Assembly: GCA_963835065.1 (NCBI GenBank)
Contig: CAWIEK010000053.1
Location: forward strand, 160,001 to 224,000
DNA from: an uncultured Chthonomonadaceae bacterium
Lineage (GTDB): Bacteria; Armatimonadota; Chthonomonadetes; Chthonomonadales; Chthonomonadaceae
DNA length: 64,000 bases
Reading direction: 5' to 3'
In this document: positions 20,425 through 60,893 of the stretch, in pieces
How the letters are laid out: each line of letters starts with the position of its first letter
Position numbering within the stretch: position 1 is the first letter of the stretch
Notes under the pieces: model-generated
Databases searched by the model: none
Told to the model about the DNA's origin: nothing
What the model saw: only the letters and a program-made list of their open reading frames with translations
Translations under genes and position numbers: made by a program

Positions 20425-20660
20425 GTAGAAAAAGAGTATGTAGAGGCAGCGTCGAAATCTTGGCAATGCAGCGCTTCCAGCCCGCTGTCTCGTTGTGTCT
20501 GGTTGTAGGGGTGAGGCGTCGTGGCCTCCAAAGCGTCAGGGCGAACGGGAGGGGTGGGACATGGGCCTGTACCTCCTTTGCTGCATAGTAGACACTTGTA
20601 CTGTTTAGACGGATGAGTGGAACAAAGGGTTCGCTTTTTTCGCGTGGTTTGGCTCTTTTT
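20425..20660 (-). ncRNA. Repeated ECF-promoter / micro-ORF / conserved-RNA unit, copy A
   Basis: GAACC-N16-CGTCTAAA (20604-20632), GGAGG, ORF MSHPSRSP* (20536-20562), conserved tail; homologous to copies at 36.2 and 60.6 kb. Confidence 0.6.
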
Positions 20661-20887
20661 TCTATCTTTTTACGGGATTGTTTTTGAGGGAGGGTTGCTG
20701 TTGGCGCTGTAAGGGACTTTCCCCAAAATAAACGTTCCGCCTGACCGAGTCGTGAACGACCCATCTACAGGGCGTTCCGCCAGCCGGTCTGCGACCGGAA
20801 CACTTATTTTGAGAAAGTTCCTAACATCCCTGTGCCACGCCCGTATTCGATAGTTGAGAATTGCCAACGCAGGTGGAGGCCGAAAGC

Positions 20888-21117
20888 ATGAACGCGCATC
20901 GTATCGAAACTGTTCTGTCGGATGAGGGATCGTGACTTTGCGCGGCCTTCCTTTCAAATCAGGGACGGCATTGGAAATCATTATTCTCGAACGCGATACT
21001 GGAACAGAGAAGGACGCAGACGAGGCAGAGCATGTCGCCGAGTGGCTGAACGCCTCGAAGCGGTCACTGCAAGATGTATGGGTCAACGACGAGGATGCCG
21101 TTTATGACAACCTATAG
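20888..21117 (+). CDS. Putative antitoxin ending WxNDEDAVYDNL, 1-nt frameshift near 20930
   Basis: GGAGG + MNAHRIETVLSDEG / IVTLRGLPF...WVNDEDAVYDNL*; overlaps the start of a MazF-like stub. Confidence 0.6.
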
Positions 21118-21146
21118 CCGAGGCGAGGTTATTTTGGTGACATTTC
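21104..21146 (+). pseudogene. PemK/MazF toxin N-terminal stub
   Basis: MTTYSRGEVILVTF, then breaks into the antisense MTase fragment. Confidence 0.55.
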
Positions 21147-21444
21147 GGTCACGGGCGCATCAAGGGGAGCGCAGGCAAGGGCAAGTTCTTCCCGCGAGAA
21201 GGGCGTCAGGCCAATGGCTTCGGAAAGCGCGTCTTTGTGGCTGCGGAGGACGCGAAAGAAGTTGACGGCCTCGCGATCCAGATCGTTGTAGGTTTCCACG
21301 GGCGAAGGCGGACGGTTGAGCAGAACGGCTGCCGACCCGCCGAACACGTCGCAGAAGTGAGTTGTCTGCGGGAGCAGGGGCAGCAGCCAATCCAGATGAC
21401 TGTACTTCCCGCCATACCAAGCCAAACGCGATCATCTTTTCCAT
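21129..21444 (-). pseudogene. Dam-like (D12 class) DNA adenine methyltransferase, 5' fragment
   Basis: WYGGK, DVFGGSAAV, YNDLD; truncated at ~100 aa, no DPPY. Confidence 0.8.
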
Positions 21445-21486
21445 GCAACCACTATTCACCAAGAAAAATATTACTTGCAATTGTAC

Positions 21487-22161
21487 TTAAGGAGCTAGAG
21501 CCGTACATAACTCCTGAATACGAGTAGTATTGCCGCCAACTTCACGTTGAATAGCGGAAATCATATCTTCGGAAGACATACCTCTGTTCGGAATATTGCG
21601 AAGCCAATCAAGTCTATTGATGATACGAGTTTTCTCAGTTTCACCAAGTTCCTGCAACAAATATATGCAGGCATCCACGTGAAATTCATGATTTCTAGGT
21701 GCTGGGCTTTGTTGTATTTGAGCCAACAAATAAGATTTTAGATTCTCCGATAACCCTTGACCGCTCCCCCTAACATCGGCCTTATGAATTCGGACCAGCC
21801 AAGGCATACTTTTAACTTCAGGCCAGTTCCCATCAACGGGTACAGGAATGAAATTACGTCCCGCCCGCAAAGAGTGTGCTACTTCTCGTCTGCAATAATC
21901 ACTATTGAAGTATGAGTGAGTGGCAAGACAAATGAAATGGGTTGCTTGGCTCGCCGCAGGTAGAAACACATTCTCGAAAGAGACACCAGGAGGTATCTCA
22001 CTGTTATCAAGAAAAACTCGTTGCCCCACGGCACGTAAGGTGTCGTACAAGTCCTTTGTAAGTTGATCCGCTTCTCCATGACGATAGGAGAGGAATATGT
22101 CGTATGGTTCTGTTGCTTGATTGGGATTGAAAACAATGTTTTCCGAGGCGCGATCTGTCAT
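21487..22161 (-). CDS. TIR-domain protein (possibly fused to the upstream multi-TM region)
   Basis: YDIFLSYRH, VFLD, YFNSDYCRRE; AGGAG before ATG 22161, but frame is open upstream. Confidence 0.85.
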   Translation of the reverse strand: MTDRASENIVFNPNQATEPYDIFLSYRHGEADQLTKDLYDTLRAVGQRVFLDNSEIPPGVSFENVFLPAASQATHFICLATHSYFNSDYCRREVAHSLRAGRNFIPVPVDGNWPEVKSMPWLVRIHKADVRGSGQGLSENLKSYLLAQIQQSPAPRNHEFHVDACIYLLQELGETEKTRIINRLDWLRNIPNRGMSSEDMISAIQREVGGNTTRIQELCTALAP

Positions 22162-22998
22162 ACTATCTCCTTCAGGTACACGAGGCGAACCGATTATTAT
22201 ATCGTATAACCACACATAGACTTTAACAACAAACTCAATAATTGTCCAGAATTTCCAGGGTACAACCTTGTTATCTTGGGCAGGGCGGCAACGGAGGAAA
22301 TTTACGAAAAAGTACGTAAATATTAATTTCATAATCGAAAAACTCACACGCATCCAATCAGACATAGCATTATCAGTGCCAAAATGAACTCCTATAGTAT
22401 AATGAATAGAGTCTAAAAGTTCAAAACAAGAGTATGCAAGAAGTACAACTTTTAATGTCGCATTGACTACTTGGTGTTTGGCGTCGTTTGTTTGATAAAG
22501 TTGAACAAGACCTGCACCAGTTTTCCAGTAGCCAAAAACAGTCGTTATAAAGCCTGTCCACTCACATCAATATTCGCTGAACTTCTCGCCTGGAATCCAT
22601 TTCTCAGTTGATGCATTAGATATGCTACCAGCCAATGTAAGAATTGCAAGGAAAATGAACGCTCCAACATCAATTGGTGCGATGCTGTTCGCTAAGGTAC
22701 CACTTTGTTCTTCTTCCGCCTCACGGCTCAAAAGAACACCTATGTATATTAGTAAGTAACCTCCGAACGCAGGTATGAGTTCGGCAGATGCTGGTCTCTT
22801 AATCTGAAAAAGTATGGTGTCGTAATATACTACCAATAAGGCGTAATGGAGAGCAAAAAGAGCAAAAGCGGTGACAATCCTTGATTTTCTATTAGGTTTA
22901 GGTATTACAACCGCTCCCCACATAGTAAGGAGGACACATATAACGCAAGAAAGCCATCCGAAAGTGGTCGAATAATGAATTGCATTGCGGCTATCCAT
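22162..22998 (-). CDS. Multi-pass membrane protein, frameshift near 22567, reads in frame into TIR
   Basis: ORF 22567-22998 (about 4 TM) continues in another frame CEWTGFITTVFG...LKVVLLAYSCFELL...MSDWMRVSFSIMKLIFTYFF...; low GC. Confidence 0.6.
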
Positions 22999-23370
22999 TG
23001 TTTATATACCTTAGAAGCAGAATATGCATGAAGACATACTATTGCATTGCTAATGCTGTGCTTGTCAATCGGTCATTGCTATAGCGCGAAGCACTAGCTT
23101 CGACAATAAACAATCGGATATACTACAAAAAAATACCCAGATCGTAATGTATAACATAGATATTAAAGACATACATGGCAAAATCTGAACTATTGTCTTC
23201 AGCATAGCCTCCAGTAGTCTAAATTGTGTGTACATTGAGACGCAAGCTTACTGCGCAAAGCCTTCGTCGTCTTCATCAAGAAATTCCACGTACAACTGCC
23301 GGTTTCCTTCCCATTGCATAACGAAATTTGAAAAATTTTCAAAAACTTTATGGACGTATGCCTTTACGGT

Positions 23371-24903
23371 CTACAAGTAAGATGCTTCACTATGTTCGAA
23401 CAAACGTAACGAAACAAAGCCCGCTTCCTGCAGAGCCTCTACGGAAATCGGCAGTGACTCTAAAGCGCGAGGTTCCACTTTGATGGCCCCGGAACCGTAG
23501 GATTTGCCGACACACGCGAGATTGGCAAGCACGGAAGGGTGCTGCAGCAGACGCCATACGCGGCTGATGGTTTCCGGGTCGTCTTGGCGTGGATAGACGC
23601 ACAGGAAACTGGTGAGCGGGAGAACATTGGCCTCGTTGCGGATAAAGCGCACGTTGCGGCGGCCTAAATACGCGAACAGGAATGGAGGTACGCGCCGTTT
23701 TTCCATGCTGTACCAGGGCTTGCGCTGGCTGATGAGAGCGCGTTGCGGCAGTCCGCGTTTTTCGCCTTCCAGCAAATACGCCTGAACCGAAGCCGGAAAA
23801 TCCTCTAGCGGGCGGGCATCCGGCGCAAACAGCAGAGTGGGCCGGCCTTCCTGTTCCAGTTGTTCCCAATCGTCGGGCGTGAAAACTTCCATTGTCACAT
23901 CACGGGTACGCCCGACCGCAGGCCGCAGGAACGCTTCGGGTATCTGTAATTCTTGTGCCTGCGCGCGGGTCAGGAAAAAGAATTCGTTGTCTCCTGTCGC
24001 TATGCCGCGCATTACGGCGCAGAAGTCGCCTAAGCGGGGGCAGCTCTCGTTATGGATACGCGGTACGCGGGAAAAACCGGTTTGCAAGCCTTCCGTTAGA
24101 AGCCGTGAATGGACGGAAATATCGGCGCGAGTTTCCGGCGGCAGGCCGTCCACAATCCAGTTTCGCAGGGCATCCGTCCACGCTTCCTGCACCTGCACCC
24201 ACAGAAACATGGGACGCGGTTCCGCCTTGCGTATCAGGAAGACAAGCGCGTTTGTGTCCACGCCGGGAAATGGAGAGGCTTGGGGTTCAAATGTAATCAC
24301 CGCATCCAAGCAGTAGTTTGTGGTAATCCACTGCCACAACGGACTGGCCGATTTCCCCTCGCACACATCGGCAGGCAGAATGAACGCCAGCCGTCCGCCG
24401 TCACGCAGCAGCGTGAGCGCCCGCAGCAGAAAATACACATGCAGCCCGGCGCGTCCGTCAAGCGCTTTGCCGAGCATTTGTTGACACCATGTTTTCAGCG
24501 TTTGTTTCGCGTCGAGGGAAAGCCGATGATGCCGAATGTAGGGCGGATTGGCAACAATGGCATTATACGTGTCATGGGGTGGATCAAACACAAAATCCCG
24601 AACTTCCACGCCCGCAAGGTCATTCTTAATTTGTTCGTCGCCGCTAGTTTTCCGCAGAATATCGGCGTCCAGTTCCGTTCCCATCAGCCGCACTTCGCGT
24701 CCCAACCGTTGTGCTTCCTGTTTGCCTGCCCGAAAGAACGCGCCCTCCCCAACTGCCGGATCGAACAGATGCTCGCTTCCTACTGCAAGAACATAAGCAG
24801 TCATTGCTTCCGCAACCCAGGCGGGCGTCCAGAACTGCCCCTTTTGCCGCAATACCTCTCGCGCTTCTCCCGTACCCGGCAGTTTTTGATGGTATATCGT
24901 CAT
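23371..24903 (-). CDS. N6-adenine DNA methyltransferase, type II RM class
   Basis: GQFWTP, FDPAVGEGAF, ANPPY, RGIATG. Confidence 0.9.
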   Translation of the reverse strand: MTIYHQKLPGTGEAREVLRQKGQFWTPAWVAEAMTAYVLAVGSEHLFDPAVGEGAFFRAGKQEAQRLGREVRLMGTELDADILRKTSGDEQIKNDLAGVEVRDFVFDPPHDTYNAIVANPPYIRHHRLSLDAKQTLKTWCQQMLGKALDGRAGLHVYFLLRALTLLRDGGRLAFILPADVCEGKSASPLWQWITTNYCLDAVITFEPQASPFPGVDTNALVFLIRKAEPRPMFLWVQVQEAWTDALRNWIVDGLPPETRADISVHSRLLTEGLQTGFSRVPRIHNESCPRLGDFCAVMRGIATGDNEFFFLTRAQAQELQIPEAFLRPAVGRTRDVTMEVFTPDDWEQLEQEGRPTLLFAPDARPLEDFPASVQAYLLEGEKRGLPQRALISQRKPWYSMEKRRVPPFLFAYLGRRNVRFIRNEANVLPLTSFLCVYPRQDDPETISRVWRLLQHPSVLANLACVGKSYGSGAIKVEPRALESLPISVEALQEAGFVSLRLFEHSEASYL

Positions 24904-24989
24904 AAGCCGCGCGTTCCAAACTTACGCTCTTGTGCGCCAACGCTCAACGCTTTCCCTTCTGCAACTTTGCCGTTGTCGAACTGAAAATG

Positions 24990-25412
24990 TTAGCGAGTCC
25001 AGTCTTCCCACTTCAAACCAACAATGTTACGGAAATCGCGCTCGTTTTGCGTTATCAAGAGAGCGTCGTTTACCAAAGTGATCGCAGCAATTTTCAGGTC
25101 GGGAGAACTGATACGGCGGTGTTGTTTACGGAGTTCGTCGTAGCGCATAGCGGCTTCCGAATCAAATGGCAAGACAGAAAGGTTGCAGTAATTCTCTAAC
25201 TGTGCCAGCAAGCGAGCATACTGAATTACTTGCGGCGCGGTACTCTTTGTCGCTGCAATGGCTGCTGTCCACCCACGAATTTGTTCCTCATAGGAGATAA
25301 CGGTAACGTGAACATCGGACGCAGGAATGTTAGCGAGGCGAGTAAGAAGCCGCCCCGCTTCGGCATTACGCCGCTCCAAAATGCTGATAGGGTTCGTGTC
25401 AAGAATAACCAC
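24990..25412 (-). CDS. vapC: VapC (PIN) toxin
   Basis: ILDTN, SYEEQIRGW, DLKIAAI, LITQNERDF. Confidence 0.9.
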   Translation of the reverse strand: MVILDTNPISILERRNAEAGRLLTRLANIPASDVHVTVISYEEQIRGWTAAIAATKSTAPQVIQYARLLAQLENYCNLSVLPFDSEAAMRYDELRKQHRRISSPDLKIAAITLVNDALLITQNERDFRNIVGLKWEDWTR

Positions 25413-25640
25413 TCAGAGTGTTTCCTCCTCGGCTTCGCCAACCTGCGATTCGCGCCACTCGCGCCCCAGGCGCATCGCTTCTTCGTAAAACGGGTCGTCC
25501 GAGAAGGTGCCGACAATGGCCTGCCAACCACGCTTTTCCCGCGCTGGCGGTTGCGCAAAGCGCTCCTCAAACTGGTGTTGCAACGTATCGAAGCGAGTTT
25601 CCAATGTGTGTAGTCTATCTTCTAGTGTTTCGGCTGCCAT
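25413..25640 (-). CDS. Antitoxin partner of VapC
   Basis: Adjacent upstream of vapC; paralog of 49568-49786 (GTF...EEAxRLGRE). Confidence 0.8.
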   Translation of the reverse strand: MAAETLEDRLHTLETRFDTLQHQFEERFAQPPAREKRGWQAIVGTFSDDPFYEEAMRLGREWRESQVGEAEEETL

Positions 25641-25785
25641 GTGGATATTCTCCTCGGTTCGCGCGCAGTTCCCTATCTGCTATCGTGACTATCTGAAAAA
25701 CGGTCTTACAAGGTTTATTATACCCGGCGTCTGATGCAGAGAAGAAAACAATCATGAGCGGCCTGCGACGGCGGCATGTGGGGCG

Positions 25786-27000: not shown

Positions 27001-27071
27001 CTTACTCCATTTAGGGTGATGTCTATTAGCGGCGATAGACTGAACCCCTCTTACGCCGCTGTATACTGAGC

Positions 27072-27138
27072 AGTTGATAGTTGATAGTTCGTAGTTGATA
27101 GAGATGCAGAAACTACGAACTTGCAGCGTCTCTTCGCT
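27072..27138 (-). repeat. 67-bp dispersed repeat, copy upstream of ackA
   Basis: Reverse complement matches 41606-41672 at 60/67. Confidence 0.85.
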
Positions 27139-29657: not shown

Positions 29658-29676
29658 CCTTCATCCTTCCTCCTTT

Positions 29677-36141: not shown

Positions 36142-36211
36142 GATCAACGCCAGGTCTTTCGAAAATGCTCGTCCGATTGTTTGTGAAGAAGATAGAATAA
36201 AGTACAAAATA

Positions 36212-36450
36212 ACGCGGAAAAAGTGAACCCTTTGCCCCACACATTCGTCTGAATAGTAGTACAAGAGTCTACCATTCAGACGGATGATATCCAAATAGGA
36301 AGGGAGGTGCATGAGGATGTTCCCCTTCTCCCGTTCGCCCTGACGCTTTCGAGGTCACGACGCCTCTCTCCTACAACCAGACACAACGAGACATCGGGCT
36401 GGAAGCGCTGTATTGCCAAGATTTCGACGCTGCCTCTACATACCCTTTTC
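36212..36450 (+). ncRNA. Repeated ECF-promoter / micro-ORF / conserved-RNA unit, copy B
   Basis: GAACC-N16-CGTCTGAA (36225-36253), GGAGG, MFPFSRSP* (36317-36343), conserved tail. Confidence 0.6.
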
Positions 36451-38156: not shown

Positions 38157-41138
38157 TTAATCCAGATAGAGAAATTCGTCCAAATTTAAGGCCATCAGGC
38201 AGAGCAGGTTTTGCGCCTGTTCCGGCTTTGCGCCGCGCCGCTGTAATCGCGTCAGCAGGTTCATGCCTTCAGCAATTTCTGCACTCGTTGGCGGACGCTG
38301 CTGTACGAGGGTCAGGACGCGGGTGGTGAAGGCGCGGGGTTCCTGACCGACTTCATGCCGCACTCGCGCCGCCAGTACACTCGCCTGCTTGTTGACAAAG
38401 GGGCCGTTTATCATGCCCAATGCCTGCGTGGGCTGCGTGGACGCGAAGCGGGCGGGCGTGGTGCGGTCAGTTTCCGGCAGGTCGAAGTTTGCCAGAAGGG
38501 GATAAATCAGCGAACGCTTGACGTGAATATAAATGCTGCGCCGGTTTACGTCTTCGGGTTTCATCTGCTCCGTATGCCAGTCCGCGCCGGGGATGGACTG
38601 CCCCGCCAGTATCTCTTTCGGGATTTCCGGGTAGATGCTGTCGCCGTACATCGTCGGGTTCAGGTTGCCCGCCACCGCTAGAAGGCTATCACGTATCTCT
38701 TCCGCCGTCAGCCGCCGCATATCGAACCGCCAGAACAAATCATTCTGCGGGTCCCGCGCCAATGCCGTCGGGTTGACCTGCGACGACTGCTTGTACGCAT
38801 TGCTCATCAATATCAGCTTGTGCAGTTTTTTGAAACTCCAACCGCAGGCAAAGGAGTTGATAGTTGAGAGTTGATAGTTGATAGGAGCGGCTTCATCCTT
38901 CATCCTTCCGCCTTCATCCTTTGCAACGAAGTTGCTTGCCAGCCAGTTCAGCAGTTCGGGATGCGTGGGGGCGGCTCCTTGCAGTCCGAAGTCGTTGGGG
39001 GTGCGTACCAGTCCCCTGCCGAAATGGTGCTGCCAGATGCGGTTGACGATCACGCGGGCGGTGAGCGGATTGTTGGGACTGGTGAGCCAGTTGGCGAGGG
39101 CGAGGCGCTGCCCGGTGGTTTTGGCGTTAGGAAGGGGACCGGGAAGCGTAGCCGTGCCGCCGCCTGCGCAAATGGGAAAACCCGCCTCCACTTTGTCACC
39201 CGGCGTGTTCGGATTGCCGCGCTGCATGAGAAACGTATCTGCAGGCTTGGGGCCGGATTCGCTGACGCACAGAATTTTTTCCGCGCTCGGTTGCTCCTGC
39301 TTGTCCAGTTCGGATTTGGTTTTTACAAGCTGCGCGTACTGGTTGGCGCGTTCCTGCGTGAACAAAATCGGGAGTTCGGCCGCTAGCAGGGTGGGCAGTC
39401 CCATCGCGTCACAGCTTTCCGCTGTGGAAAGGGGACGCCGCGCAAATCCCGGCCCGCTCCATGCCACGCTGATGCCGAACGGCCCTCTGCCTTGCAGATA
39501 ATCCAGCCGGAACGGCACCGACCCGGCGTCAAGATGCATGGTTGCATGCTGTTCCTGCCCCTGTCCGCCCGGCGAGTTTTTTCCAGCGTTTTCTTGCCCG
39601 CAAGCGAGATACGCGAGCTGTCGTCGCTGTCCAGATAAAAGGTGTACTCGCCCTCTTTCGGCGCGTTCAGGATTCCCTCAAACACAAAGCCGAAGTTTTC
39701 CTCGCGCTTGTGCGGGCGCAGGTCAATGAACGCAGGCGTCAGAGTACGCCGACTGAAACGGGTTTCAGTTTGTCGAAGTTGGGGAAAGCCGGCTAGGCTC
39801 CCTGAAAATAGCGGTAATGCAGGTCGGACAGGTCGCTCGGATTGACAAGCTGCGCCCGTGTTCGCGCCATGCGGTTTCGATGGCAGCGATTGCCGCTTGA
39901 TTGGCTTTGCGTTTGGCCGCCAGTTCCGTGACTGCGCGCTCGTACTCCTGCTTCTTTTCCGCGGTTGGGAAGTACAGGGCTTCGTCGGTCGGCCCGCCAT
40001 TTTTGAAGCGGTTGATGTTGTGGAAGATGGCAAGGAAGCGGTAATAATCTTTTTGCGGGATTGGGTCGAGTTTGTGGTCGTGGCAGCGGGCGCAGTCCAG
40101 CGTCAGGCCCAAAAACGCCTGCCCGGTCGTGGCAACCAGATCATCCAGTTCGTCGTACTGCGCCTGCAGCATGTCGGCAGGCTCATCGTCCCAGATGCCC
40201 AGGCGATAATAAGCGGTTGCGACGAGGGCATCGCCGTTGGCGTCGGGCAGTTCATCGCCGGCGATCTGTTCGCGCACAAAGCGGTCATAAGGCTTGTCGT
40301 CGTTGAAGGCGCGGATCACGTAATCGCGGTACTTGGTGATGTAGGGTTTGGGGTTGTCGCGCTCGTAGGAATTGGTTTCTGCATAGCGCACGAGATCGAG
40401 CCAGTGCCGCCCCCATTTTTCGCCATAGTGCGGACTGGCAAGCAGGCGATCCACAACTTTTTCCTAGGCGTTGGGCGATTTGTCGTTTTCAAACGCGCTC
40501 ACTTCTTCGGGCGTGGGCGGCAGGCCGATCAAATCGTAGGTGACGCGGCGGATCAGTTCGCGGCGGGTGGCGGTGGGGGAAGGTTTTAATCCGGATGCTT
40601 CCAAACGCTGCACAATAAAAGCGTCAATGGGATTGCGTATCCAGGCGGCATTATGCGCGTTTTTGATTGTGGGCACAATGGGACGCGTTAGTGGCTGAAA
40701 TGCCCAGTGCGTTTTGCCTTTTTCCATCAGCGAAGGCGCGGACAGCGTGGCGTTCGTCGGCCATTTCGCGCCCTGCCGCACCCACGTTTCCAGCGCGGCG
40801 ATTTTGTCTGCGGGCAGGCTGGCTCCAAGCGGCATACGCGGCTTGCCGCCTTCGCCTTTGATGCGGCGAACCACTTCCTGCGCCTGCGCCGCCGAAACAG
40901 GCGCGTCCAAACGCAAGTCGCCCTGCGCCGCGTCCTTGCCATGACACCCCACGCACGAGGCCAGCAGCGTAGGCCGTACTTTCGACTCAAACAAATTAGA
41001 GTTGGAAGCCGCCGGAGGAGAAGGAACGGGAACAGGCAACGGCGCGGTTTTTTGTCCCCATGCCGCCAGCGTCAGCAGCGCAATCGGCAACGCCACGCCC
41101 ATCTGCAAACTCATTCGTACTCGCCTGTGTTGTTTCAA
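38157..41138 (-). CDS. PSD1 (DUF1549/DUF1553) + planctomycete cytochrome c + PA14-like protein; in-frame TAG at 40464 and frameshifts
   Basis: CVGCH, HWAF, RRVTYDLIGLPP, HWLDLVRYAET, CARCHDHK, NRIWQHHFGRG. Confidence 0.82.
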
Positions 41139-42279: not shown

Positions 42280-44898
42280 ATGGACCCGAAAAACTTATCA
42301 AGCATATTAGAAGAAGTGGATTTAAATCAGCATGGACGATCAAGACACATCGGATGACAATGAAGACAATGGATTGGAATCGCGGCAGAACATCCCGGAC
42401 GAGATCAATCTGCTGCCCCTGCGCGAAGTGGTGATGTTTCCCGTCGTGGTCGCGCCGCTGGGCGTGGGGCGGGAAAACAGCATCAAATTGGTCAATGAAA
42501 GCGTTGTCGGGCGGCAACCGGTTGATTGCGGTCGCCTGTATGAAAGACCCGCAGATTGAGAACCCAACGCTGGACGACGTGTATAAAATCGGCAGCGTGG
42601 TGGCGATTCGCATGATGGCGCAGGTTCCCGAAGGAATCCGGCTGATTGTGCAGGGCATACAGCGGTTTGAGATTGTGGAAGCCGTACAGACCACGCCCTA
42701 TTTGCGCGTAAAAATTCGGCTGATTGAGGAACCGGAGATTGCGGAAGAGGATCGGCTGGAAATCGAAGCCCTGCGCCGGCAGATCAGCCAGATGTTCAAC
42801 CGCATCGTGCAGTTGTCGCCCGACCTGCCCGATGAGATGCAGAACGTGCCCAATAATGTGCAGGACGCGGGTACGCTGACGGATCTTGATCGCGCAGCAG
42901 ATGCCCCGCCTGACGTTCGAGGAGCGGCAGGAGATACTGGAACTCATTGAAATCAAGCCGCGCATGACGCGCCTGATGGAACTGCTCGGACGCGAAGTGC
43001 AGGTTTTGGAATTGGGCAACCGGCTGCAATCCGAAGTGGCGCAGGAGTTGGGCAAAACGCAGCGCGACTACTATTTGCGCGAACAGATACGCCAGATTCA
43101 GAAGGAATTGGGCGAGGGCGATGACCGGACGCAGGAGATAGACGAACTGCGCGAAAAAATCGCCGCGTCGGGCATGACCGAAGAAGCCCGCAAGGAAGCC
43201 GACCGCGAACTCGACCGGTTGGGGCGGATGAACCCGGCTGCGCCCGAATACAACGTCACGCGCACCTATCTGGACTGGATGGTGCAGATGCCCTGGACGA
43301 CGGCGAGCGAGGACAATCTGGATATTGCGGCGGTGAAGGAAGTTCTGGACGCCGACCATTACGGTTTGGAGAAGATCAAAGACCGAATTTTGGAATACCT
43401 GTCTGTGCGCAAGTTCAAGGCGGACGGCACGGCGCGGCAGCCGATTCTGTGCTTTTCCGGCCCTCCCGGCGTGGGCAAAACCAGTCTGGGCAAGTCCGTC
43501 GCCAAAGCGATGGGGCGCAAGTTCGTCCGCATGTCGCTTGGCGGCGTTCGGGACGAGGCGGAAATACGGGGACATCGGCGCACGTACATCGGGGCGCTTC
43601 CCGGCCAGTTCATACAGGGCATCAAGCGGGCGGAAACCAATAACCCGGTCTTCCTGCTGGACGAGATTGACAAGGTGCAGGCCGATTTCCGGGGCGACCC
43701 ATCGGGCGCGTTACTGGAAGCGCTCGACCCGGAGCAGAACAACTCGTTCCGCGATCACTATCTGGACGTGCCGTTCGACCTGAGCAAAGTGCTGTTCATT
43801 ACGACTGCGAACGTGCTGGATACCATTCTGCCGCCCCTGCGCGACCGCATGGAGATCATCGAACTGGCGGGCTATACGGAAGAAGAAAAGGTTGCCATTG
43901 CCGAAAAGCACCTGATTCCCAAGCAGGCCGGGGAACACGGCATTGAGGAGAAGATCACGTTCACGTCGCTTGCGGTGCAATTGATTGTGCGCGGGTACAC
44001 CAAAGAAGCGGGCGTTCGCAATCTGGAGCGCGAAATCGCCACCGTGTGCCGCAAAGCGACGCGCGCGTTTGCCGAAAGCAAGTTCGAGACACTGGACGTG
44101 ACGGAAGCGGTTGTGATGGAGTATCTGGGCGCTCCTCGCTTCGAGCAGGAGGAAGCCATTGAGCGCGTGGAACACGCGGGCGTGGCGACGGGATTGGTGT
44201 GGACGCCGATGGGCGGCGACATCATCTTCATCGAAGCGACGGCCATGCCCAGCCCGTCCAATCGTCCGTCAACGCTGACAATTACGGGGCAGTTGGGGGA
44301 TGTGATGCGCGAGTCGGCGCAGGCCGCCCTCTCGTATGTCCGCGCCCATGCCGTCGAAATCGGCGCTCCGGCGGACTTCTACGAGAAGCACGACATACAT
44401 ATCCACGTCCCGGCGGGCGCGATCCCGAAGGATGGGCCGAGCGCGGGCGTGACGATGACAACGGCGCTTGCGTCCCTGTTCAGCGGGCGACACGCCAAAC
44501 CGCTGCTGGCAATGACGGGCGAGGTCACGCTGTCAGGCAAAGTGCTGCCGATCGGCGGCGTGAAGGAGAAAGCGTTGGGCGCGCGTCGGGCGGGCATCAA
44601 GACCATTCTCGTGCCCGAACGCAACCGCAAGGACGTGATGGAAGACCTGCCCGAAGAAGTCCGCAGTGAACTCGACATCCACTTCATGTCGGAAGTGAAG
44701 GACGTGCTGGAACTGGCGCTGGAACCGAAACCCGGCGCGGCAGTGGGCGAAAAACCGGAAGGCAGCAAAGCGCAAACGCCGCCCAAAAAGGACAAAACTC
44801 GCCGCGCGCCTGCCGTGCCCAAAGTGGTTCCCGAAATGCCCGGCGCAGGCTCTCCGCTTGCATTAGGAGAGAAGTTAGCCGCGAATACACGCGAATAG
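42280..44898 (+). CDS. lon: ATP-dependent protease Lon, frameshifts in the 5' part
   Basis: LPLREVVMFP, GPPGVGKTS, LDEIDK, PKDGPSAG, GGVKEK. Confidence 0.93.
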
Positions 44899-47797: not shown

Positions 47798-48200
47798 ATG
47801 ACCACGCTTTCAATTAAGACAAAAGTGACTGTGGACGACTTTGTTGAGGCGGCAGAGCAACTCCCCACCGCCGAGTTGGAACAGCTTGCCCGCCGCCTGC
47901 TTCACATTCAGGCGCGTCGGAAAGCGCCCCATCTGTCACAACGAGAAGCGGAACTGCTCGAAGGAATTGCGCAAACCGGCACGTTTGCGCAGCAGGCCAG
48001 ATACCACGACCTGAATACAGCAATTAGAACACCGCCCTCTAACATACGACGAGCAGAACGAATTGCATGAACTCATCGCGCAATCCGAAGCCTGCACCGC
48101 GCAACGCCTTGCCCTGCTGATCGAACTCTCCCAACTGCGCCGCGTTTCCCTTCCTGCCCTGATGAAACAACTGCAAATCAAGGCTCCCGACGTTGTCTGA
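47798..48200 (+). CDS. Putative antitoxin partner of HNH toxin, frameshift near 48025
   Basis: REAELL...; shifted frame QRLALLIELSQLRRVSLPALMKQL; overlaps the HNH start. Confidence 0.6.
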
Positions 48201-48618
48201 ATACGTGTCGAAAAAACTTCGCGCTGAGATTGCCCGTCGCTCCGGAGGACGCTGTGAATACTGCTGTTCTCCGTCAACATTCAGCATTGATCCTTTTGTT
48301 GCCGAGCATATCCACCCTGTCGCCAAAGGTGGCTTAACCGTTGCCGACAATCTTGCGTATGCGTGTATGGGCTGCAATGGCTATAAGCAGGACAAAACGG
48401 AGGCTTACGACGCCGTAAGTCAAACTGTCGCTGTCCTGTATCATCCGCGTACGCATGTTTGGCACGAGCATTTTGTGTGGAATGAAGAGTTTACGCATCT
48501 TGTTCCGTTGACGGTCATCGGGCGCGTGACGATTGCAGAACTGCAACTCAATCGTGAGGGTGTGCGCAATGTTCGTCTGCTTCTCATTATGGCTGGTCTC
48601 CATCCTCCGCGCCGATAA
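48193..48618 (+). CDS. HNH endonuclease
   Basis: CEYC, EHIHP, NLAYACMGCN, HPR...W.EHF. Confidence 0.88.
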   Translation: MSEYVSKKLRAEIARRSGGRCEYCCSPSTFSIDPFVAEHIHPVAKGGLTVADNLAYACMGCNGYKQDKTEAYDAVSQTVAVLYHPRTHVWHEHFVWNEEFTHLVPLTVIGRVTIAELQLNREGVRNVRLLLIMAGLHPPRR

Positions 48619-48667
48619 TGCTGTTCCTCTTTACAGTCGCTTGAAGAGTGACAAGCAATCTCGTTCT

Positions 48668-49009
48668 TTATGAAACGGCGAACTCGGTGAGGTGGCGGAC
48701 TTCGGGCGGGTTGAAGGCGAGAACAATGTCGCTGTGCGGAACGCCCAAATGTACCAATTCACCAGCGATGCCGTGTTTTGTCCAGTCTTCTTCAATCCAG
48801 ATTTTGCCGTTTTTGAGGCGCAGATAGAACAAAGGACGACTAACGCGGGTTTCGCCGCGCCAGCCGACGCTCGTTACCATGTACTGCCCGTGTTCGTCAT
48901 CGGACACAATCTGCAAGTCTACACCCGTATCGGTCGCATCCTCATACCAACTGCGATAGTCTTCCAGCAGGGCATGTATCACCTGCCGGTACTGATTTAT
49001 TCGATCCAT
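48668..49009 (-). CDS. xisI: XisI protein
   Basis: GKIWIEEDWT..GIA.EL..LGVPHSDIVLAF.PPEVR. Confidence 0.88.
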   Translation of the reverse strand: MDRINQYRQVIHALLEDYRSWYEDATDTGVDLQIVSDDEHGQYMVTSVGWRGETRVSRPLFYLRLKNGKIWIEEDWTKHGIAGELVHLGVPHSDIVLAFNPPEVRHLTEFAVS

Positions 49010-49413
49010 TCTGAAATCTCCTCGCTGCTGACCCGCACGATGAGCAAGGGCAAGCGGTGCAGTTCCCGCATCCGCTGAAACGCCTTCACTTGCAGCATCT
49101 GGTCATAGATTACACTGCTGATGGCAAGATACAGTTTGCGCGTTGCATCCACATCCGAGAGTATTCCCGCATAAACCATGTACTGCCCCATTGCGTTCTC
49201 AAGATCGTTCATAGGCGATTGCCCGATGAAGCTTTTGATTTCAACGGCAATCTGCTGCCCATTCCGCTCCGCCGCCAGAGGTAACTCCGCTGCCAGATCA
49301 ATCAGAACCTTCTCATCCCCGTACTTGATGATATACGGATCATGCGTGATCGTCCAGCCGTCTTTGACAAGGGCGTGTTTGACAGCTTCATGAATAGTGT
49401 CTTTGCGCGGCAT
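48997..49413 (-). CDS. xisH: XisH protein
   Basis: HEAVKHALVKDGWTITHDP, IAVEIKSF. Confidence 0.88.
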   Translation of the reverse strand: MPRKDTIHEAVKHALVKDGWTITHDPYIIKYGDEKVLIDLAAELPLAAERNGQQIAVEIKSFIGQSPMNDLENAMGQYMVYAGILSDVDATRKLYLAISSVIYDQMLQVKAFQRMRELHRLPLLIVRVSSEEISEWIE

Positions 49414-49567
49414 ATATTCTCCTGTACGCAAATTGTACCCGAACGGCAAGGCTGTGAAACAACTTATTTTTGTTGCTGGAATCAGCGTTGCGCGAAAACT
49501 TGTATTGGTTCGCCAAGCAACGGCTATGGTATAATTCGGTTATCCGCAGGAAAGGAGCAATCTATTC

Positions 49568-54378: not shown

Positions 54379-54489
54379 CTTAGAGCCTATCTCGATAGGG
54401 CTTGTCCTTGCGTCCGTAGGACGCTTACACTATTTCCTGTGCGGGATTTTGTCTCACCCTTTTGTGGCACACAGGGAAGTGAGCAGAGA

Positions 54490-54599
54490 AGTAGTCAGTA
54501 GTCAGTAGTCAGTAGAGGAACCTTCTTCTATAAACCGGTTGCGGTTGTAAATCTGTGAGTAGACGGGCATTTCTACTGACTACTGACTACTGACTACTT
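54490..54599. repeat. Heptamer-arm (TAGTCAG) inverted element
   Basis: Sister of 42134-42268. Confidence 0.85.
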
Positions 54600-54611
54600 C
54601 TGGAGCAATTT

Positions 54612-55469: not shown

Positions 55470-55701
55470 TTGCCTGCAAGTACCATATATTTGAAAGTAC
55501 ATACATCGAATTGGAACTGATTCGCCGTTGCTGCGTGAAATAGTCTGTTCGATACGCCTGCGCGGAACATGGCGGCGTTCAAAAGCGGTGTTGGGCATGT
55601 CCTAAACTTGATTTATTGGTCAAGGCGCAAAGTCAACGTCAATCGCGAGTACAAATTGAATCGCATGATGGCTGAACACGAAGCTGGAAAGGAAGATTCG
55701 G

Positions 55702-56976
55702 ATGAAAACTGCGGGGTTTGCATCGCTTACGCGCGGTTCGGCGCTGCTCGGCCTGAGCGCCTGTATTGGGTTTGGCGTTATTGGCTGCCGGGGCAAGTCG
55801 AACAATGCCGTAACAGTGGCTGACGGCATATCCGGGCAAAATACCAGCCAGAACGTCGGCGGAGCCAGCGCTGCTGTTTCGGGCGCAACAGTCAGCGACG
55901 CGGACGCGCAGCAGTTTACCGATAAAATGTCCCGCGCCATGAGAAGCAACGATGTTACGGGAATGTCCAACCTGATAGACGTGGACGCGCTGGCAAAAGC
56001 CAGTGTCGCCGACTTGAACATTCCCAACCTGGACATGGCCGGGTTTACACAGGGGATGCGCCAGTCCCTTGCCACTCCCACCGGCCTGCCCGCCCAACTC
56101 GCGCAAAGCATCGCCAATGGCGGCAGCGTTGACCTGCTGCGGTTTGTGGAGGTAGACCATCAGAAACGCGCCCGTATGCGCCTGGTGCATCCCAACAACG
56201 GCGGCGTCAACTACATTGATTTCATTTTGGGGCGCGATGGGGCGGGGCAAGTCGTGGCGCAGGATATGTACATCTTTTACAGCGGCGAACTGCTGTCGCA
56301 AACGGTGCGCAGGCTGGCCGTGCAGATGGCCGCGCAGGGAAACCAGAGTCTGCTGGAACGGCTCAAGGGCACGGAATCCGAATTTGTCAAGCATATCGGG
56401 GATGTAGAAGGAATCACGACGGCCCTTGCCGCCAAAAATGGCGGGGAAGCGGCACGGCTGTTCGACGCCCTGCCCGACAGCCTGAAACAAAACAAAACTC
56501 TGAAACTGATGCACATTCAGATTGCGGAACTGCAAGGGGATACGCAGTATACGCAGGCGATTGCCGATTTTCGCGCCGCCTTCCCCAACGACCCGGCCAG
56601 CGACCTGATCAGCATTGACTACTACCTGCTCAAAAAGCAGTACGACAAATCCCTGGAAGCGGTGAACAAGCTGGACAGTTCCCTGGGCGGCGACCCGTAC
56701 CTGAACGTGATCCGCGCCTACCTGTACATCACCGAAGACAAAATGCCGCAGGCGCAGGACGCGGCGGAAAAAGCCGCGCAGCAAATGCCGGATAACAAGG
56801 ATGCCAATACTGTCGTGCTGCTGACGGCGCTGATCAACAAGCGTTACGAACCCGTGCCTGCCGCGCTCAACGCCCTGAAAAAAGCGGGAGAAGCCATCCC
56901 TGACGTTGCGACAAACGAGAAGTACGCCGGTTTCCGCAGTTCGCCGCAGTACAAAGAGTGGCAGAAGATGCAGTAG
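55702..56976 (+). CDS. Putative lipoprotein with TPR-like C-terminus
   Basis: Lipobox-like VIGC; helical repeats. Confidence 0.65.
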   Translation: MKTAGFASLTRGSALLGLSACIGFGVIGCRGKSNNAVTVADGISGQNTSQNVGGASAAVSGATVSDADAQQFTDKMSRAMRSNDVTGMSNLIDVDALAKASVADLNIPNLDMAGFTQGMRQSLATPTGLPAQLAQSIANGGSVDLLRFVEVDHQKRARMRLVHPNNGGVNYIDFILGRDGAGQVVAQDMYIFYSGELLSQTVRRLAVQMAAQGNQSLLERLKGTESEFVKHIGDVEGITTALAAKNGGEAARLFDALPDSLKQNKTLKLMHIQIAELQGDTQYTQAIADFRAAFPNDPASDLISIDYYLLKKQYDKSLEAVNKLDSSLGGDPYLNVIRAYLYITEDKMPQAQDAAEKAAQQMPDNKDANTVVLLTALINKRYEPVPAALNALKKAGEAIPDVATNEKYAGFRSSPQYKEWQKMQ

Positions 56977-57005
56977 CCGCGTAAACAGCCTGATTGACGC
57001 TGATG

Positions 57006-57041
57006 AAATCGCCCGAATGGTTCAACCGTTCGGGCGATTTT
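57006..57041 (+). terminator. Terminator hairpin
   Basis: aaatcgcccgaatgg ttcaa ccgttcgggcgattt. Confidence 0.75.
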
Positions 57042-57118
57042 GCCGTTTGTTTTGCCTGAACGGTTACGGTTACGGGCGGCTTCTGCGCAGGGGGCGTGTT
57101 TTGCGGTACAATAGCCAC

Positions 57119-58541
57119 ATGGCTATTAAATTTTCAGAACCTACTACGGCGCACAATATAATTCCTTCGCAGCATACTGTTCCTTCTCCCAAAGGGCGCG
57201 TCAGCCTTATCAATTTGGGCTGCGCGAAGAACGAGGTGGACAGCGAGGAGATGCTCGGCCTGCTGCAAAGCGAAGGCTACGGCGTCGAGTTCGCCCACAA
57301 TAGCAAGGCCGTTCGCGCTGATGCCGACGTGGTTGTTATCAATACCTGCGGCTTTATCGAAGCGGCAAAAGAAGAATCTATCAACACCATTCTGGAAGCC
57401 TTGCAGCGCAAGGAGCGGGGCGAGATCAAAAAGGTGGTTGTGGCGGGCTGTTTGGTGCAGCGATATGCCAAAGAACTGGCGCTGGAACTCCCGAACGTAG
57501 ACGCTTTCATCGGCACAGGGCAAATGGGACAGATCGGGCAAGTGGTGGGCGACGCGCTGATTCGGCCCGGCCAACTGCTGCAAATCGGAGCGAAGCCGCA
57601 CCATCAATGGCTGGACACGCCCACCCGCGCCCGCATTGGGCAGTCCGTGGACGGCGTACCTGAAAATCTCCGAAGGCTGCGACCATGCCTGCACGTTCTG
57701 CGCCATCCCCAGTTTTCGGGGCCGGCACGTCAGCAAGCCAATGGAGAAAATCATTGCCGAAGCCGAACTGCTCGTCTCACAGGGCGTGAAAGAAATCAAC
57801 CTCATCGCGCAGGACTCCACACAGTACGGCTACGACCTGTACGGCAAAATGCGCCTGCCGGAACTGCTGCGCGAACTGTCGCAAATCAACGGCGTGCAAT
57901 GGCTGCGCCTGTTTTACTGCTACCCTTCCCGCGTGAACCGGGGCATCATAGACGCGATTGCCACCACGCCCAAACTGCTGCACTACATTGATATGCCGCT
58001 CCAGCACGCCGACAACGAAATGCTCCGCCTGATGCGCCGCCCCATGACATACGAGGGCTACCTCAAACTGCTGGCCGACTTCCGAGCCGCCGCGCCCGAT
58101 GTCGCCATACGCACGACGTTTATTGTCGGCTTTCCCGGCGAAACCAAAGAACACTTTGCCACGCTGGAACGTTTCGTCGAAGAAGCGCGATTTGACCGCG
58201 TGGGCGTGTTCGAGTATTCGGTTGAGGACGGTACGCCGAGCGCGGATATGGAGCCGAAAGTGCCTGGCCGCACCAAGCGAACGCGCAAGGAAAAACTGAT
58301 GGCGCGGCAGCAGCCCATTTCGCTGGCCTGTAATCAAAAGTGGGTTGGGCGCGAGTTGGACGTACTTGTAGAAAGCCGTTCGCCACTTGATGTTACCACG
58401 ATGATAGGCCGCAGCTTCCGCGACGCGCCCGAAATTGATGGGCAGGTGTACGTGAAAAAATGCGCCGCGCAGCCCGGTTCGTTCGTCCGCGCCCGCGTCA
58501 CCGAAGCCCGCCCCTACGATCTGGTTGCCGAACCTGTGTAA
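57119..58541 (+). CDS. rimO: Ribosomal protein S12 methylthiotransferase, frameshift near 57638
   Basis: LGCAKNEVDSE, NTCGFI, GCLVQRY, CDHACTFC, DAPEIDG (TRAM domain). Confidence 0.92.
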
Positions 58542-58558
58542 GATTTTGGGATAAAACT

Positions 58559-58798
58559 ATGCAGCAAGTTACTTTAGAAGAAGCCAAAGCGCATTTAACG
58601 GAACTGGTGGAAGCCGCCGCGCATGGCGAAGAAGTGTTTATTACGAAAGAAGACGGTCTTTCCGTTCGGCTTGTACTTCACCATTCTGGCACACAAGAAC
58701 CTGAGCGCCGGAAGCGTCAGTTTGGCAGCGCAAAAGGGCTGATGACAATGGCTCCTGATTTCGACGCGCCACTCGACGACTTCAAAGAGAATATTTGA
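58559..58798 (+). CDS. Phd/YefM-like antitoxin (orphan)
   Basis: EAKAHLTELVEAA..GEEV.I; RQFGSAKG..MAPDFDAPL. Confidence 0.8.
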   Translation: MQQVTLEEAKAHLTELVEAAAHGEEVFITKEDGLSVRLVLHHSGTQEPERRKRQFGSAKGLMTMAPDFDAPLDDFKENI

Positions 58799-58906
58799 AA
58801 CAAAAGTATTTGTGTGTAAAACAACAAAAATTAGTGGCGGAAGCCACTTGGGGCGGAATTACGTTTGTACAACTCGCATTTCTGGAAAGGAAATTGATAA
58901 TTACAC

Positions 58907-60589
58907 ATGACTGATATTGAAAACGGCACGAACGGCAAGCTGCAGATTATTTCGCTCGGCGGCAGCGGCGACATCGGCAAAAACATGCTTGCGTTTCGCT
59001 ATGAAGACACCATTCTGATCGTGGATTGCGGCGTCAGCTTCGCCAACGAGGAGCAGCCCGGCGTTGACCTGATTATTCCCGACATCACGTACCTGCTGGA
59101 ACACCGCGAAATGGTGAAGGGCATCTGCCTGACGCACGGGCATGAAGACCATATCGGCGCCCTCCCGTTCGTGCTGAAGCAACTGCCGCTTCCCCTGTAT
59201 GGAACGCCGCTCACCCTGGGCATGGTACGCGAAAAACTCAGCGAACATGGGCTTGTCGCCAGCACCAGTTTCAACCCGTACCCGGAGGGCAAAGCGGTGG
59301 AATTCGGGCCGCTGTCCGTGCGGGCAATCCATGTCACGCACAGCCTGCCGGACGCGGCCAGCCTGGTGATTACGTCGCCGGTGGGAACGGTCGTGCATAC
59401 ATCCGACTTCAAGATTGACAACACGCCCGTTGACAACCGCTTGTTCGATTCCAGCAGCTTTGCGCAGATCGGCGACAAGGGCGTAAGATTGCTGATTTCC
59501 GACAGCGTGAACGTGGAGCGCAAAGGCTGGTCGCCCTCGGAGCGCAGTTTGGTTCCCGTTTTTGACCGCTTCATGCGCGACAGCCTGGGGCGGGTGATCG
59601 TGGCGACGTTCGGCTCCAACCTGCACCGGGTTCAAACGGTTGTGGACACGGCGACGCGGTATGGGCGCAAGGTGGCGATCTTCGGGCGCAGCATGACGCA
59701 AAACGTGGCGACGGCGCGGGCGTTGGGCATTTTGCGCATTGCCGACCATCAGCTTGTGAAAGTGGAAGACATCGGCAAGTACCATCCCGTTGAAATCGCG
59801 ATTCTGACAACGGGCAGTCAGGGCGAACCCCTTGCCGGCCTGACGCGCATGAGCCGCGACGAGAATTCCAAAATTCAGATTGACAAGACCGATACAATCA
59901 TTTTGTCTTCCACGCCGATTCCCGGCAACGAGGATATGGTGTGGCGCGTGGTCAACCGCATCTTCCGGCTTGGCGCGACTGTGGTTTACGAGGCCATTCA
60001 AAACGTGCATGTGTCGGGGCACGGCTATCAGGAAGAACTCAAAATGATGATCAACCTGACCCGCCCCGATTTCGTCGCGCCCTATCACGGCGAAGCGCGG
60101 CACTACCATGCGTACCGTCAGATGGCATTAGATATGGAGTATCCGCCCGAAAACATCCTGACGTTTGATGTGGGACAGATGCTCGTTATGGACGAAAACG
60201 GCGTCCGCAAAGGCACGGAAACGGTTGCGCACGGCAGCGTACTCGTGGACGGCATTTCTACGGGCGGCGTGTCGGACGTGGTTCTGCGTGACCGGCGGCA
60301 TTTGTCTACGGACGGAACCGTGATTGTCACGATGACGATGGACCGCAGCACAGGCGAAGTGCTTTCCGGCCCGGATTGGCTGTCGCGGGGTTTCCTCAAG
60401 CCGGAAGACAGCAGCGAGTTGTTCGAGGCGGCGAGTGAGCGCGTGTGTCAGGCGGTGGAGGAACTCAACTACACGGAAGGCTCGGACGTGGACACGGTTC
60501 GCGTGACTGTCCACGACACGGTAGCCAAGTACCTGCGCAAGCGCACCAGCCGCCGCCCCGTCGTGGTTCCCGTCATCATGGAGATTTAA
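58907..60589 (+). CDS. rnj: Ribonuclease J
   Basis: IGKNM, THGHEDHIG, TGSQGEP, HVSGH. Confidence 0.93.
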   Translation: MTDIENGTNGKLQIISLGGSGDIGKNMLAFRYEDTILIVDCGVSFANEEQPGVDLIIPDITYLLEHREMVKGICLTHGHEDHIGALPFVLKQLPLPLYGTPLTLGMVREKLSEHGLVASTSFNPYPEGKAVEFGPLSVRAIHVTHSLPDAASLVITSPVGTVVHTSDFKIDNTPVDNRLFDSSSFAQIGDKGVRLLISDSVNVERKGWSPSERSLVPVFDRFMRDSLGRVIVATFGSNLHRVQTVVDTATRYGRKVAIFGRSMTQNVATARALGILRIADHQLVKVEDIGKYHPVEIAILTTGSQGEPLAGLTRMSRDENSKIQIDKTDTIILSSTPIPGNEDMVWRVVNRIFRLGATVVYEAIQNVHVSGHGYQEELKMMINLTRPDFVAPYHGEARHYHAYRQMALDMEYPPENILTFDVGQMLVMDENGVRKGTETVAHGSVLVDGISTGGVSDVVLRDRRHLSTDGTVIVTMTMDRSTGEVLSGPDWLSRGFLKPEDSSELFEAASERVCQAVEELNYTEGSDVDTVRVTVHDTVAKYLRKRTSRRPVVVPVIMEI

Positions 60590-60595
60590 CGGTAC

Positions 60596-60893
60596 GTAGA
60601 AAAAGGGTATGTAGAGGTCATCGTCGAAATCTTGGCAATACAGCGCTTCCAGCCCGATGTCTCGTTGTGTCAAGTTGTAGGAGAGAGGCGTCGTGACCTC
60701 GTAAGCGTCAGGGCGAACGGGAGGGGTGAAACATAGGCTTTGCACCTCCCTTTTGTCTTGGTTGAGAGTTGAGGGTTGAGAGTTGAGAGGAACTCGAACT
60801 TTTAGCCTTCGCCTCTATGTAGACGGTATTCTACTGTTTAGACGGCTGTTTGAGGCATAAGGTTCGCTTTTTTCGCGTGGTTTGGCTCTTTTT
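60596..60893 (-). ncRNA. Repeated ECF-promoter / micro-ORF / conserved-RNA unit, copy C
   Basis: GAACC-N16-CGTCTAAA (60837-60865), GGAGG, MFHPSRSP* (60708-60734), conserved tail; heptamer insert in the leader. Confidence 0.6.

Follow-up and report, generated by a model that had tools for sequence, protein, structure and literature searches.

Short arrest peptides, sibling small RNAs (sRNAs), 5' stabilisers of RNA and miniature transposable elements with inverted repeats (MITEs) make up the closest described counterparts of the element reported here, a dispersed unit of predicted promoter, micro open reading frame (ORF) and non-coding RNA tail. Three copies of it lie in the window, by which we mean the whole 64,000-nucleotide (nt) stretch of contig CAWIEK010000053.1, positions 160,001 to 224,000, from an uncultured Chthonomonadaceae bacterium. 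Arrest leaders (TnaC, PepNL/NanCL and the RAPP/RxPP peptides ApdA and ApdP) share with the element a short ORF, a C-terminal arginine and proline and selection at the amino-acid level, and the arrest predicted for the element is likewise at or beside the stop codon. Their C-terminal conservation is found in the element, whereas their position upstream of a co-directional regulated gene mostly is not (of 161 copies, 101 have a convergent and 60 a co-directional gene downstream); the element also ends in R-x-P-stop rather than RxPP and has a hairpin at a fixed distance, a conserved non-coding core and 162 copies. Qrr, csRNA, SgrS and SR1 are sibling or dual-function sRNAs, the latter giving peptide and RNA from one transcript; the element differs from such sRNAs in a copy number far above the handful known to us, in the lack of seed-target enrichment and in its spread by transposon shells. 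OmrA and OmrB, as described in a passage of PMC4211561, resemble it as near-identical sRNA genes under one regulator. In hosts with RNase J, the 5' stabilisers treated in parts of PMC3997798 and PMC5737220 (the ermC stall, STAB-SD and hbs) place a strong Shine-Dalgarno (SD) sequence or a stalled ribosome ahead of an RNA body, but the body that would be protected in the element is a short non-coding core and not an mRNA. Finally, MITEs such as Correia, QMITE1/2 and BOX are dispersed, intergenic and high-copy, and one subfamily of the element shares their terminal inverted repeats (TIRs), target-site duplications and dependence on a transposase in trans (sections of PMC10969869). A cognate autonomous insertion sequence (IS) with the same ends does exist for the element. 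Its ends, however, are not conserved over its interior: the cargo is conserved more than the TIRs, it was carried by two unrelated shells, most copies show no shell, and the promoter points into the element's own ORF and RNA.

We propose, with a confidence a little short of even, that each copy is a stand-alone small RNA gene in which a ribosome parked at the stop codon of the micro-ORF shields the core that follows. Judged from its sequence, the unit would function as an arrest-peptide 5' stabiliser joined to an sRNA and moves about in the manner of MITE cargo, and it is a member of neither group.

Predicted promoter, micro-ORF and non-coding tail

Direct reading of the window bears out the architecture given in the original prediction, in which GAACC and CGTCT(A/G)AA boxes stand 16 nt apart in all three copies, a GGAGG precedes an ATG, and the ORF is followed by the hairpin GAGGY-cacgac-GCCTC and a near-identical tail. 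The GAACC and -10 boxes lie at 20632-20628 and 20611-20604 in copy A, 36225-36229 and 36246-36253 in copy B, and 60865-60861 and 60844-60837 in copy C; the GGAGG is 9, 9 and 10 nt from the ATG, and the ORFs read MSHPSRSP, MFPFSRSP and MFHPSRSP before the stop, respectively. A covariance-model search of the window returned no fourth copy and gave the three E-values of 1e-27 to 3e-26, far beyond chance, from a model partly built from these copies themselves. The promoter boxes below are of the type predicted for extracytoplasmic function (ECF) sigma factors.

20437..20675, minus strand: copy A, whole unit, from the A-rich upstream tract to TCTACATA (direct reading and covariance model)
20604..20632, minus strand: copy A, predicted ECF-type promoter boxes GAACC-N16-CGTCTAAA
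20588..20594, minus strand: copy A, second -10-like motif TGTCTAC
20572..20576, minus strand: copy A, Shine-Dalgarno GGAGG
20536..20562, minus strand: copy A, micro-ORF MSHPSRSP-stop
20513..20528, minus strand: copy A, hairpin, 7 nt past the stop
20437..20491, minus strand: copy A, 3' core with closing helix, UGRAA-loop hairpin and invariant TGYATTGCCA at 20461-20470
36185..36442, plus strand: copy B, whole unit (direct reading and covariance model)
36225..36253, plus strand: copy B, predicted promoter boxes GAACC-N16-CGTCTGAA
36266-36272, plus strand: copy B, second -10-like GTCTAC motif
36303..36307, plus strand: copy B, Shine-Dalgarno GGAGG
36317..36343, plus strand: copy B, micro-ORF MFPFSRSP-stop, with a further in-frame ATG at 36311
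36351..36366, plus strand: copy B, post-stop hairpin
36388..36442, plus strand: copy B, 3' core; invariant TGTATTGCCA at 36409-36418
60608..60895, minus strand: copy C, whole unit; long leader with CTCTCAA repeats (direct reading and covariance model)
60837..60865, minus strand: copy C, predicted promoter boxes GAACC-N16-CGTCTAAA
60819-60825, minus strand: copy C, second -10-like GTCTAC motif
60745..60749, minus strand: copy C, Shine-Dalgarno GGAGG
60708..60734, minus strand: copy C, micro-ORF MFHPSRSP-stop
60685..60700, minus strand: copy C, post-stop hairpin
60608..60663, minus strand: copy C, 3' core; invariant TGTATTGCCA at 60633-60642
58907..60589, plus strand: RNase J gene, which converges on copy C and shows the host to have this 5'-3' exoribonuclease

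BLAST and hidden Markov model searches of the organism's own assembly (8.0 Mb, 92% complete; G000 in our numbering) found 162 copies, the window's three among them, at scores of 105-152 bits, with no weaker copy at E<=0.01 below that set. Four pairs of copies sit in duplicated segments, so that there are about 158 independent loci, and 160 of the 162 copies fall outside the genes predicted by a simple purpose-made gene finder. Adding 39 distinct copies from related genomes gave a survey of 201. The SD, the ATG and a frame of 8-11 codons to a shared stop are intact in 155 of the 162 own copies; five copies are out of frame in or beside short homopolymer runs, which are possibly long-read errors, and one duplicated pair has an in-frame ATT. 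A frame of 8-16 aa is present in 38 of the 39 related copies, five of these frames starting at GTG, TTG or CTG, and the remaining copy is interrupted by a premature stop. All 201 copies have a proline codon and then a stop ahead of the hairpin (200 by pattern and one, with a 9-nt spacer, by eye). In the 200 pattern-matched copies, which span three species, the last proline codon is CCC (157), CCT (24), CCG (14) or CCA (5), the stop is TGA (170), TAA (29) or TAG (1), and position -3 is arginine in 184 (using four codons), leucine in 10 and histidine in 6. The base following the stop is a pyrimidine in 200/200, versus about 43% in predicted genes, and the spacer from stop to hairpin is 7 nt in 196 of the 201 copies despite 59 different sequences. 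The copies are related, so these counts are not independent events, and the argument rests on the kinds of change tolerated, which across three species are synonymous-only at the last codon, swaps from stop to stop, and length steps of three, with the spacer length fixed. At the level of sequence, these changes show the peptide C-terminus and the stop-to-hairpin distance to be under selection.

A cassette for selenocysteine recoding through a selenocysteine insertion sequence (SECIS), for readthrough or for frameshifting was rejected since 30 of the 200 stops are TAA or TAG and there is no fixed UGA; the own genome has a tRNA-Sec. A coding 3' extension is ruled out by the distance from stop to core, which takes every value from 73 to 77, and for that reason the tail is non-coding.

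The promoter consists of an A-rich tract, GAA(C/A)C, a spacer and YGTCTAA. The two boxes are kept in 153 of the 162 copies, with a spacing of 16 nt in 99 and 17 nt in 50 of these, and a CGTC at -10 is common among ECF promoters, according to part of PMC3397946. The ECF-type reading of the original prediction, with an AAC-type -35 and a CGTC-type -10 box at 16-17 nt conserved against a free spacer, is thus upheld. A promoter matrix trained on the copies themselves finds only 14 matches elsewhere in the genome above 17 bits, three of which exceed 24; the three best (G000:C37:93821, C5:7889 and C68:97252) are upstream of a type II secretion/pilus ATPase, an alpha/beta hydrolase and a small gene without a Pfam match. 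Selection on the promoter was assessed without circularity in 16 copies chosen by their shared transposon shell and not by promoter. Changes number 0/112 in the -10 box and 2/96 in the -35 box, as against 51/240 (21%) in the spacer, 172/1301 in the left shell, 31/320 and 42/299 in the TIRs, 28/480 in the ORF and 52/1119 in the core, a pattern that shows the promoter boxes to be under selection. A second GTCTAC, with at most one mismatch, stands just past the -10 box in 151 of 152 copies and is possibly a promoter-proximal pause element or an operator. Any antisense promoter within the long leaders is weak (median 7 bits in 86 leaders), as is any 5' leader hairpin (69 of 152 lie no higher than the shuffles' 10th percentile). 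The own genome has 57 matches to sigma-70 region 2, and copies are not enriched beside sigma genes (6/57 vs about 11% background).

In the conserved non-coding tail of about 105 bases, the post-stop hairpin has four positions that are paired in 200/200 copies, with an A-U to U-A swap in four copies of the congener G001, and a fifth pair that is U-G in 149 copies and C-G in 49. A mismatch-tolerant helix of 6-7 bp closes the core, which holds a short hairpin whose loop is UGGAA in 182 copies, UGAAA in 12 and GNRA in 4; the motif TGYATTGCCA, predicted to be single-stranded, is unchanged in all 198 copies scored. In a 20-sequence alignment, two-sided changes affect four pairs vs 1.3 +/- 0.6 in shuffles. 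Set against synonymous shuffles, the pairing between SD and ORF that had been noted in the window copies comes out clearly ahead for the MFH subfamily alone (mean rank 0.05, 59 copies), the relatives' main subfamily, MPV, showing no such excess (0.47, 18 copies), and occlusion of the SD, whether by the ORF or by sequence past the hairpin, is not conserved across subfamilies and was discarded.

Range, spread and genomic neighbourhood

The covariance model detects 13 copies in the congener G001 and at least 48 in the congener G002. A DNA search found the element in 2 of 40 relatives, both of them congeners, while a pattern search of 65 non-congeneric genomes of the class and the covariance model in 39 non-congeneric genomes of the family each found none. 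A looser pattern in 299 other genomes of the phylum gave two single matches, the same as its two control matches; metagenome collections gave 92 pattern matches, none above 13 bits, and the viral contigs, phages and plasmids searched held no copy. The element is confined to the genus in the genomes and collections searched. No Rfam family matches in the window at the gathering threshold, in line with the original prediction, the only sub-threshold results being matches of copy B at E>1 and one unrelated match in five congener loci; supposed likenesses of short core stretches to tRNA loops, the 5' end of transfer-messenger RNA (tmRNA), SAM-II and guanidine-II are not borne out by Rfam. We found no description of the element in the open-access literature searched. 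The proposal of a multicopy sRNA or micropeptide-plus-RNA system without a known family stands as to the stand-alone multicopy unit, the selected micro-ORF and the conserved non-coding tail; what it missed was the scale of 162 copies and the IS shells. Sub-model searches of the own genome found two orphan promoter blocks and no orphan core. Two copies in G002 (C14 about 637.8 kb; C9 about 78.5 kb) are truncated from the 5' side, with nothing left but the core's 3' half, and such truncated cores were not found in the own genome.

Both ISAs1-type inverted ends, starting CAGGG, flank 15 of the 162 copies, and of 16 aligned shelled copies 5 have an exact 10-bp target duplication and 3 more have one with a single mismatch; a generic scan found no target duplication outside that subfamily. 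The same ends bound an ISAs1-type transposase (PF13808) in G002, and the own assembly has none. The own genome does have two full-length 1362-bp ISAzo13 elements (PF07592; G000:C41:162052-163414 and C53:451923-453285) with a transposase split in two frames, and other copies of the unit keep decayed ISAzo13 ends that share this second TIR, 20 downstream ends having been found. There are also 13 mini-elements of 79-92 bp with the same ends as the ISAzo13 elements. At least 48 of the 162 copies retain some TIR remnant and the three in the window none. These remnants show, from the sequence of the flanks, that part of the spread took place within shells derived from two unrelated insertion sequences, ISAs1 and ISAzo13 in type, and that these shells later decayed. 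Divergence in the shelled copies is 10-14% in the TIRs, 4.6% in the core and 0-2% in the promoter boxes.

Of the 29 loci in G002, 8 project onto an own copy (1 of 13 for G001; chance is roughly 3% per flank), 17 have a homologous flank without a copy, one corresponds to an empty site here and 3 are uninformative. At each of the eight loci shared with G002, the own copy lies nearer to the rest of the own copies than to the G002 copy at the matching position and has a dinucleotide diagnostic of the own genome, and 5' modules have been swapped at several shared loci. Since own copies resemble each other over their positional counterparts, the family evolves in concert, likely via gene conversion. 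The flanks of G002 copies are contiguous in the own genome at 3 of 13 loci, as compared with 52 of 85 control windows, with control gaps counted in both orientations; upstream flanks of congener copies have a homologue in 15 of 29 cases vs 103 of 148 control windows, a weak hint against an ordinary neighbourhood.

Copies also avoid each other. Intervals under 10 kb number 4 of 105, where six null models expect 20-27 (0 of 2000 draws as low in each), and a control repeat with 69 copies shows no mutual avoidance. Close pairs are scarce in both orientations (direct 3, inverted 1), so that simple deletion between direct repeats is not enough to account for this. The unit is not a leader, as had been concluded from copies B and C, because the downstream gene is convergent for most copies (the 101 of 161 given above). 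In gaps between co-directional genes copies are antisense in 61 cases vs 24 (p 7e-5), as is expected of an active promoter, and local GC skew reveals no bias in replication strand. The window copies had been described as bordering accessory DNA; genome-wide this does not hold, neighbours showing no difference from genes at other gaps in third-position GC (GC3), length and codon score, and flanks none in GC (p 0.16-0.59).

Within the window, copies B and C are aimed at the 3' ends of the DUF1501 and RNase J genes, as originally described, and copy A faces a co-directional 296-aa ORF without a Pfam match. The DUF1549/PSCyt and UPF0004-radical SAM-TRAM genes, and perhaps Lon, are split into overlapping frames (window 39765-41138, 42886-44898 and 56906-58541), which are probably long-read indel errors. 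TIR-domain, DNA methyltransferase, PIN, HNH and XisH genes at window 21487-25412, 48193-49449 and 61227-62207 form small defence-like or mobile patches.

A type XIII retron, a kind treated in parts of PMC7736814 and PMC13712802, occurs in all three congeners, with the own operon at G000:C50 about 52.5-60.6 kb. The operon comprises a reverse transcriptase (RT), a SWIM-BRCT protein and a WGR/HEAT-like protein, and no conserved non-coding RNA lies directly upstream of the RT. Ahead of the operon is a conserved non-coding unit of about 200 nt with a variable long hairpin, present in 2-3 diverged tandem copies in the three congeners and once in G020; these units may be multiple msr-msd-like genes for one RT. 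The retron was rejected as a partner of the element because its own repeats of about 200 nt are unrelated, giving no match to the element model, and because it occurs in four genomes without the element. A stand-alone RT gene (L281:5430-10029; G000:C49 about 681-686 kb) adjoins a fragment of cas1 and an array of CRISPR-like repeats, beside genes for ribosomal proteins.

A possible ribosome-parking mechanism and its rivals

We now put forward a hypothetical mechanism for the unit. An ECF sigma factor, predicted to be of the stress type, would transcribe it, and a ribosome translating the micro-ORF would terminate slowly at R-(S/P)-P-stop plus pyrimidine, with the hairpin at its downstream edge. 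The parked ribosome would block 5'-3' decay by RNase J, and the core would bind a partner, either the ribosome itself or a protein. The net effect would likely be a sink, dosed by copy number, for ribosomes, release factor and peptidyl-tRNA-Pro under stress. A helix at such a fixed distance matches the mRNA entry region of the ribosome. A C-terminal proline reportedly induces SsrA tagging. According to passages in the sources cited, RxPP and HGPP stall E. coli ribosomes (PMC7897499), short peptides can arrest at stop codons and over-expressed TnaC depletes tRNA-Pro (PMC11890864), and stalled ribosomes are 5' roadblocks to RNase J that protect the RNA downstream (PMC3997798; PMC5737220). It is the conserved Arg-x-Pro, stop, next base and helix at fixed distance, taken with these precedents, that lead us to favour a ribosome-parking RNA.

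Several observations weigh against this proposal. The RxPP stallers have one residue more than R-S-P-stop, and part of PMC7897499 describes RAPP by itself as insufficient for stable arrest in natural peptides. Copy number ranges from 13 to 162 in genomes of similar size, which makes a tightly dosed essential role hard to hold. No sigma gene has an own promoter that clearly matches, the best scoring 14.2 bits, near the 99th percentile of random genes; in several congener copies and one own copy a TTCTAA-led motif replaces the ECF boxes, so that more than one promoter has come to stand ahead of the SD-ORF-core unit. Most of the two-sided changes in the core stem from one G001 lineage, and the folds of whole units do not exceed shuffles in stability (z +1.17, +1.10, -0.63). 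A purely diffusible RNA does not explain the spacing of the copies, and gene conversion alone could keep them looking intact.

The spacing speaks for a local role in cis, in which evenly spaced units with a tethered ribosome act as chromosome-domain barriers or antisense brakes. It is consistent with the deficit of short intervals (4/105 vs 20-27 expected) that the control repeat lacks, the antisense placement (61:24) in co-directional gaps and the 8 of 29 congener loci kept in place. However, at 17 of those 29 a flank has its homologue here but the copy is absent, a barrier has no obvious need of an RNA motif with 10 invariant nt, and G001 manages with 13 copies only, because of which regular spacing is not a genus-wide need; we consider the local role unlikely. 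We give a slightly smaller chance to a selfish cargo that promotes its own persistence or spread, by an addiction-like cost of loss, biased gene conversion or transposase help. TIR remnants in no fewer than 48 of the 162 copies, 15 copies with both ends of ISAs1 type, exact 10-bp duplications in 5 of 16, a copy number differing over tenfold, 5' modules swapped at shared loci and flanks contiguous in the other genome at only 3 of 13 loci (52 of 85 controls) all point that way, but the same cargo was carried by transposases of two unrelated families and has diverged less than the TIRs, the window's three copies have no remaining shell, and the copies inspected showed no toxin, recombinase or RT gene linked to them.

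The constancy of the core could point to a base-pairing sRNA with the seed UGYAUUGCCA, for which the ORF would merely be a 5' stabiliser; the 10-mer is unchanged in 198/198 and predicted single-stranded, and sibling sRNA sets exist (a passage of PMC4211561). Its complement, however, occurs near 25 of 6473 predicted gene starts, which matches the genome frequency and seven control words, and 16S rRNA contains neither the 7-nt complement nor any of three wobble variants (23S rRNA was not located), so that we regard this reading as improbable. A released Pro/Arg-rich peptide that inhibits other ribosomes in trans, like apidaecin, is very improbable: MPVYIRPP and MPVYTRPP echo apidaecin's PVYI and RPP stretches but are without the C-terminal Arg-Leu described as critical in part of PMC11347161, the N-termini vary freely, and a spacer fixed at 7 nt ahead of an RNA hairpin speaks for action in cis. 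Least probable of all is a neutral relic of MITE type whose copies would have been kept alike by recent spread together with gene conversion. The TIRs and target duplications of one subfamily, the concerted evolution and the promoters, ORFs and sRNAs that MITEs often carry (per passages of PMC10969869) would fit it, but the synonymous-only last codon, stop swaps, length steps of three and fixed spacer in three species, and boxes conserved while spacer and TIRs drift, already contradict that reading.

Implications

The essence of our wider proposal is a new class of RNA gene for stress-induced ribosome parking, whose dose would be set by about 160 evenly spaced copies that spread via unrelated shells and are kept uniform by gene conversion; we hold it more tentatively than the parking of a ribosome on each copy, as something possible rather than probable. 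To our knowledge, arrest peptides precede the gene that they control, sibling sRNAs come in handfuls, and the interiors of MITEs drift. By contrast, here a promoter-ORF-RNA cassette without a downstream gene is intact at 162 places, kept across speciation and self-avoiding. The roughly 200 natural variants amount to a mutational scan of a termination-arrest context that is testable in vitro without culture of the host. If the proposal is true, almost the entire regulon of one ECF sigma factor would be this RNA, which could store ribosomes or brake translation throughout the nucleoid. If the units act locally, they would be a new kind of chromosome landmark; if ribosomes are parked on them, they would constitute a new RNA-based throttle or store of translation capacity, tuned by copy number.

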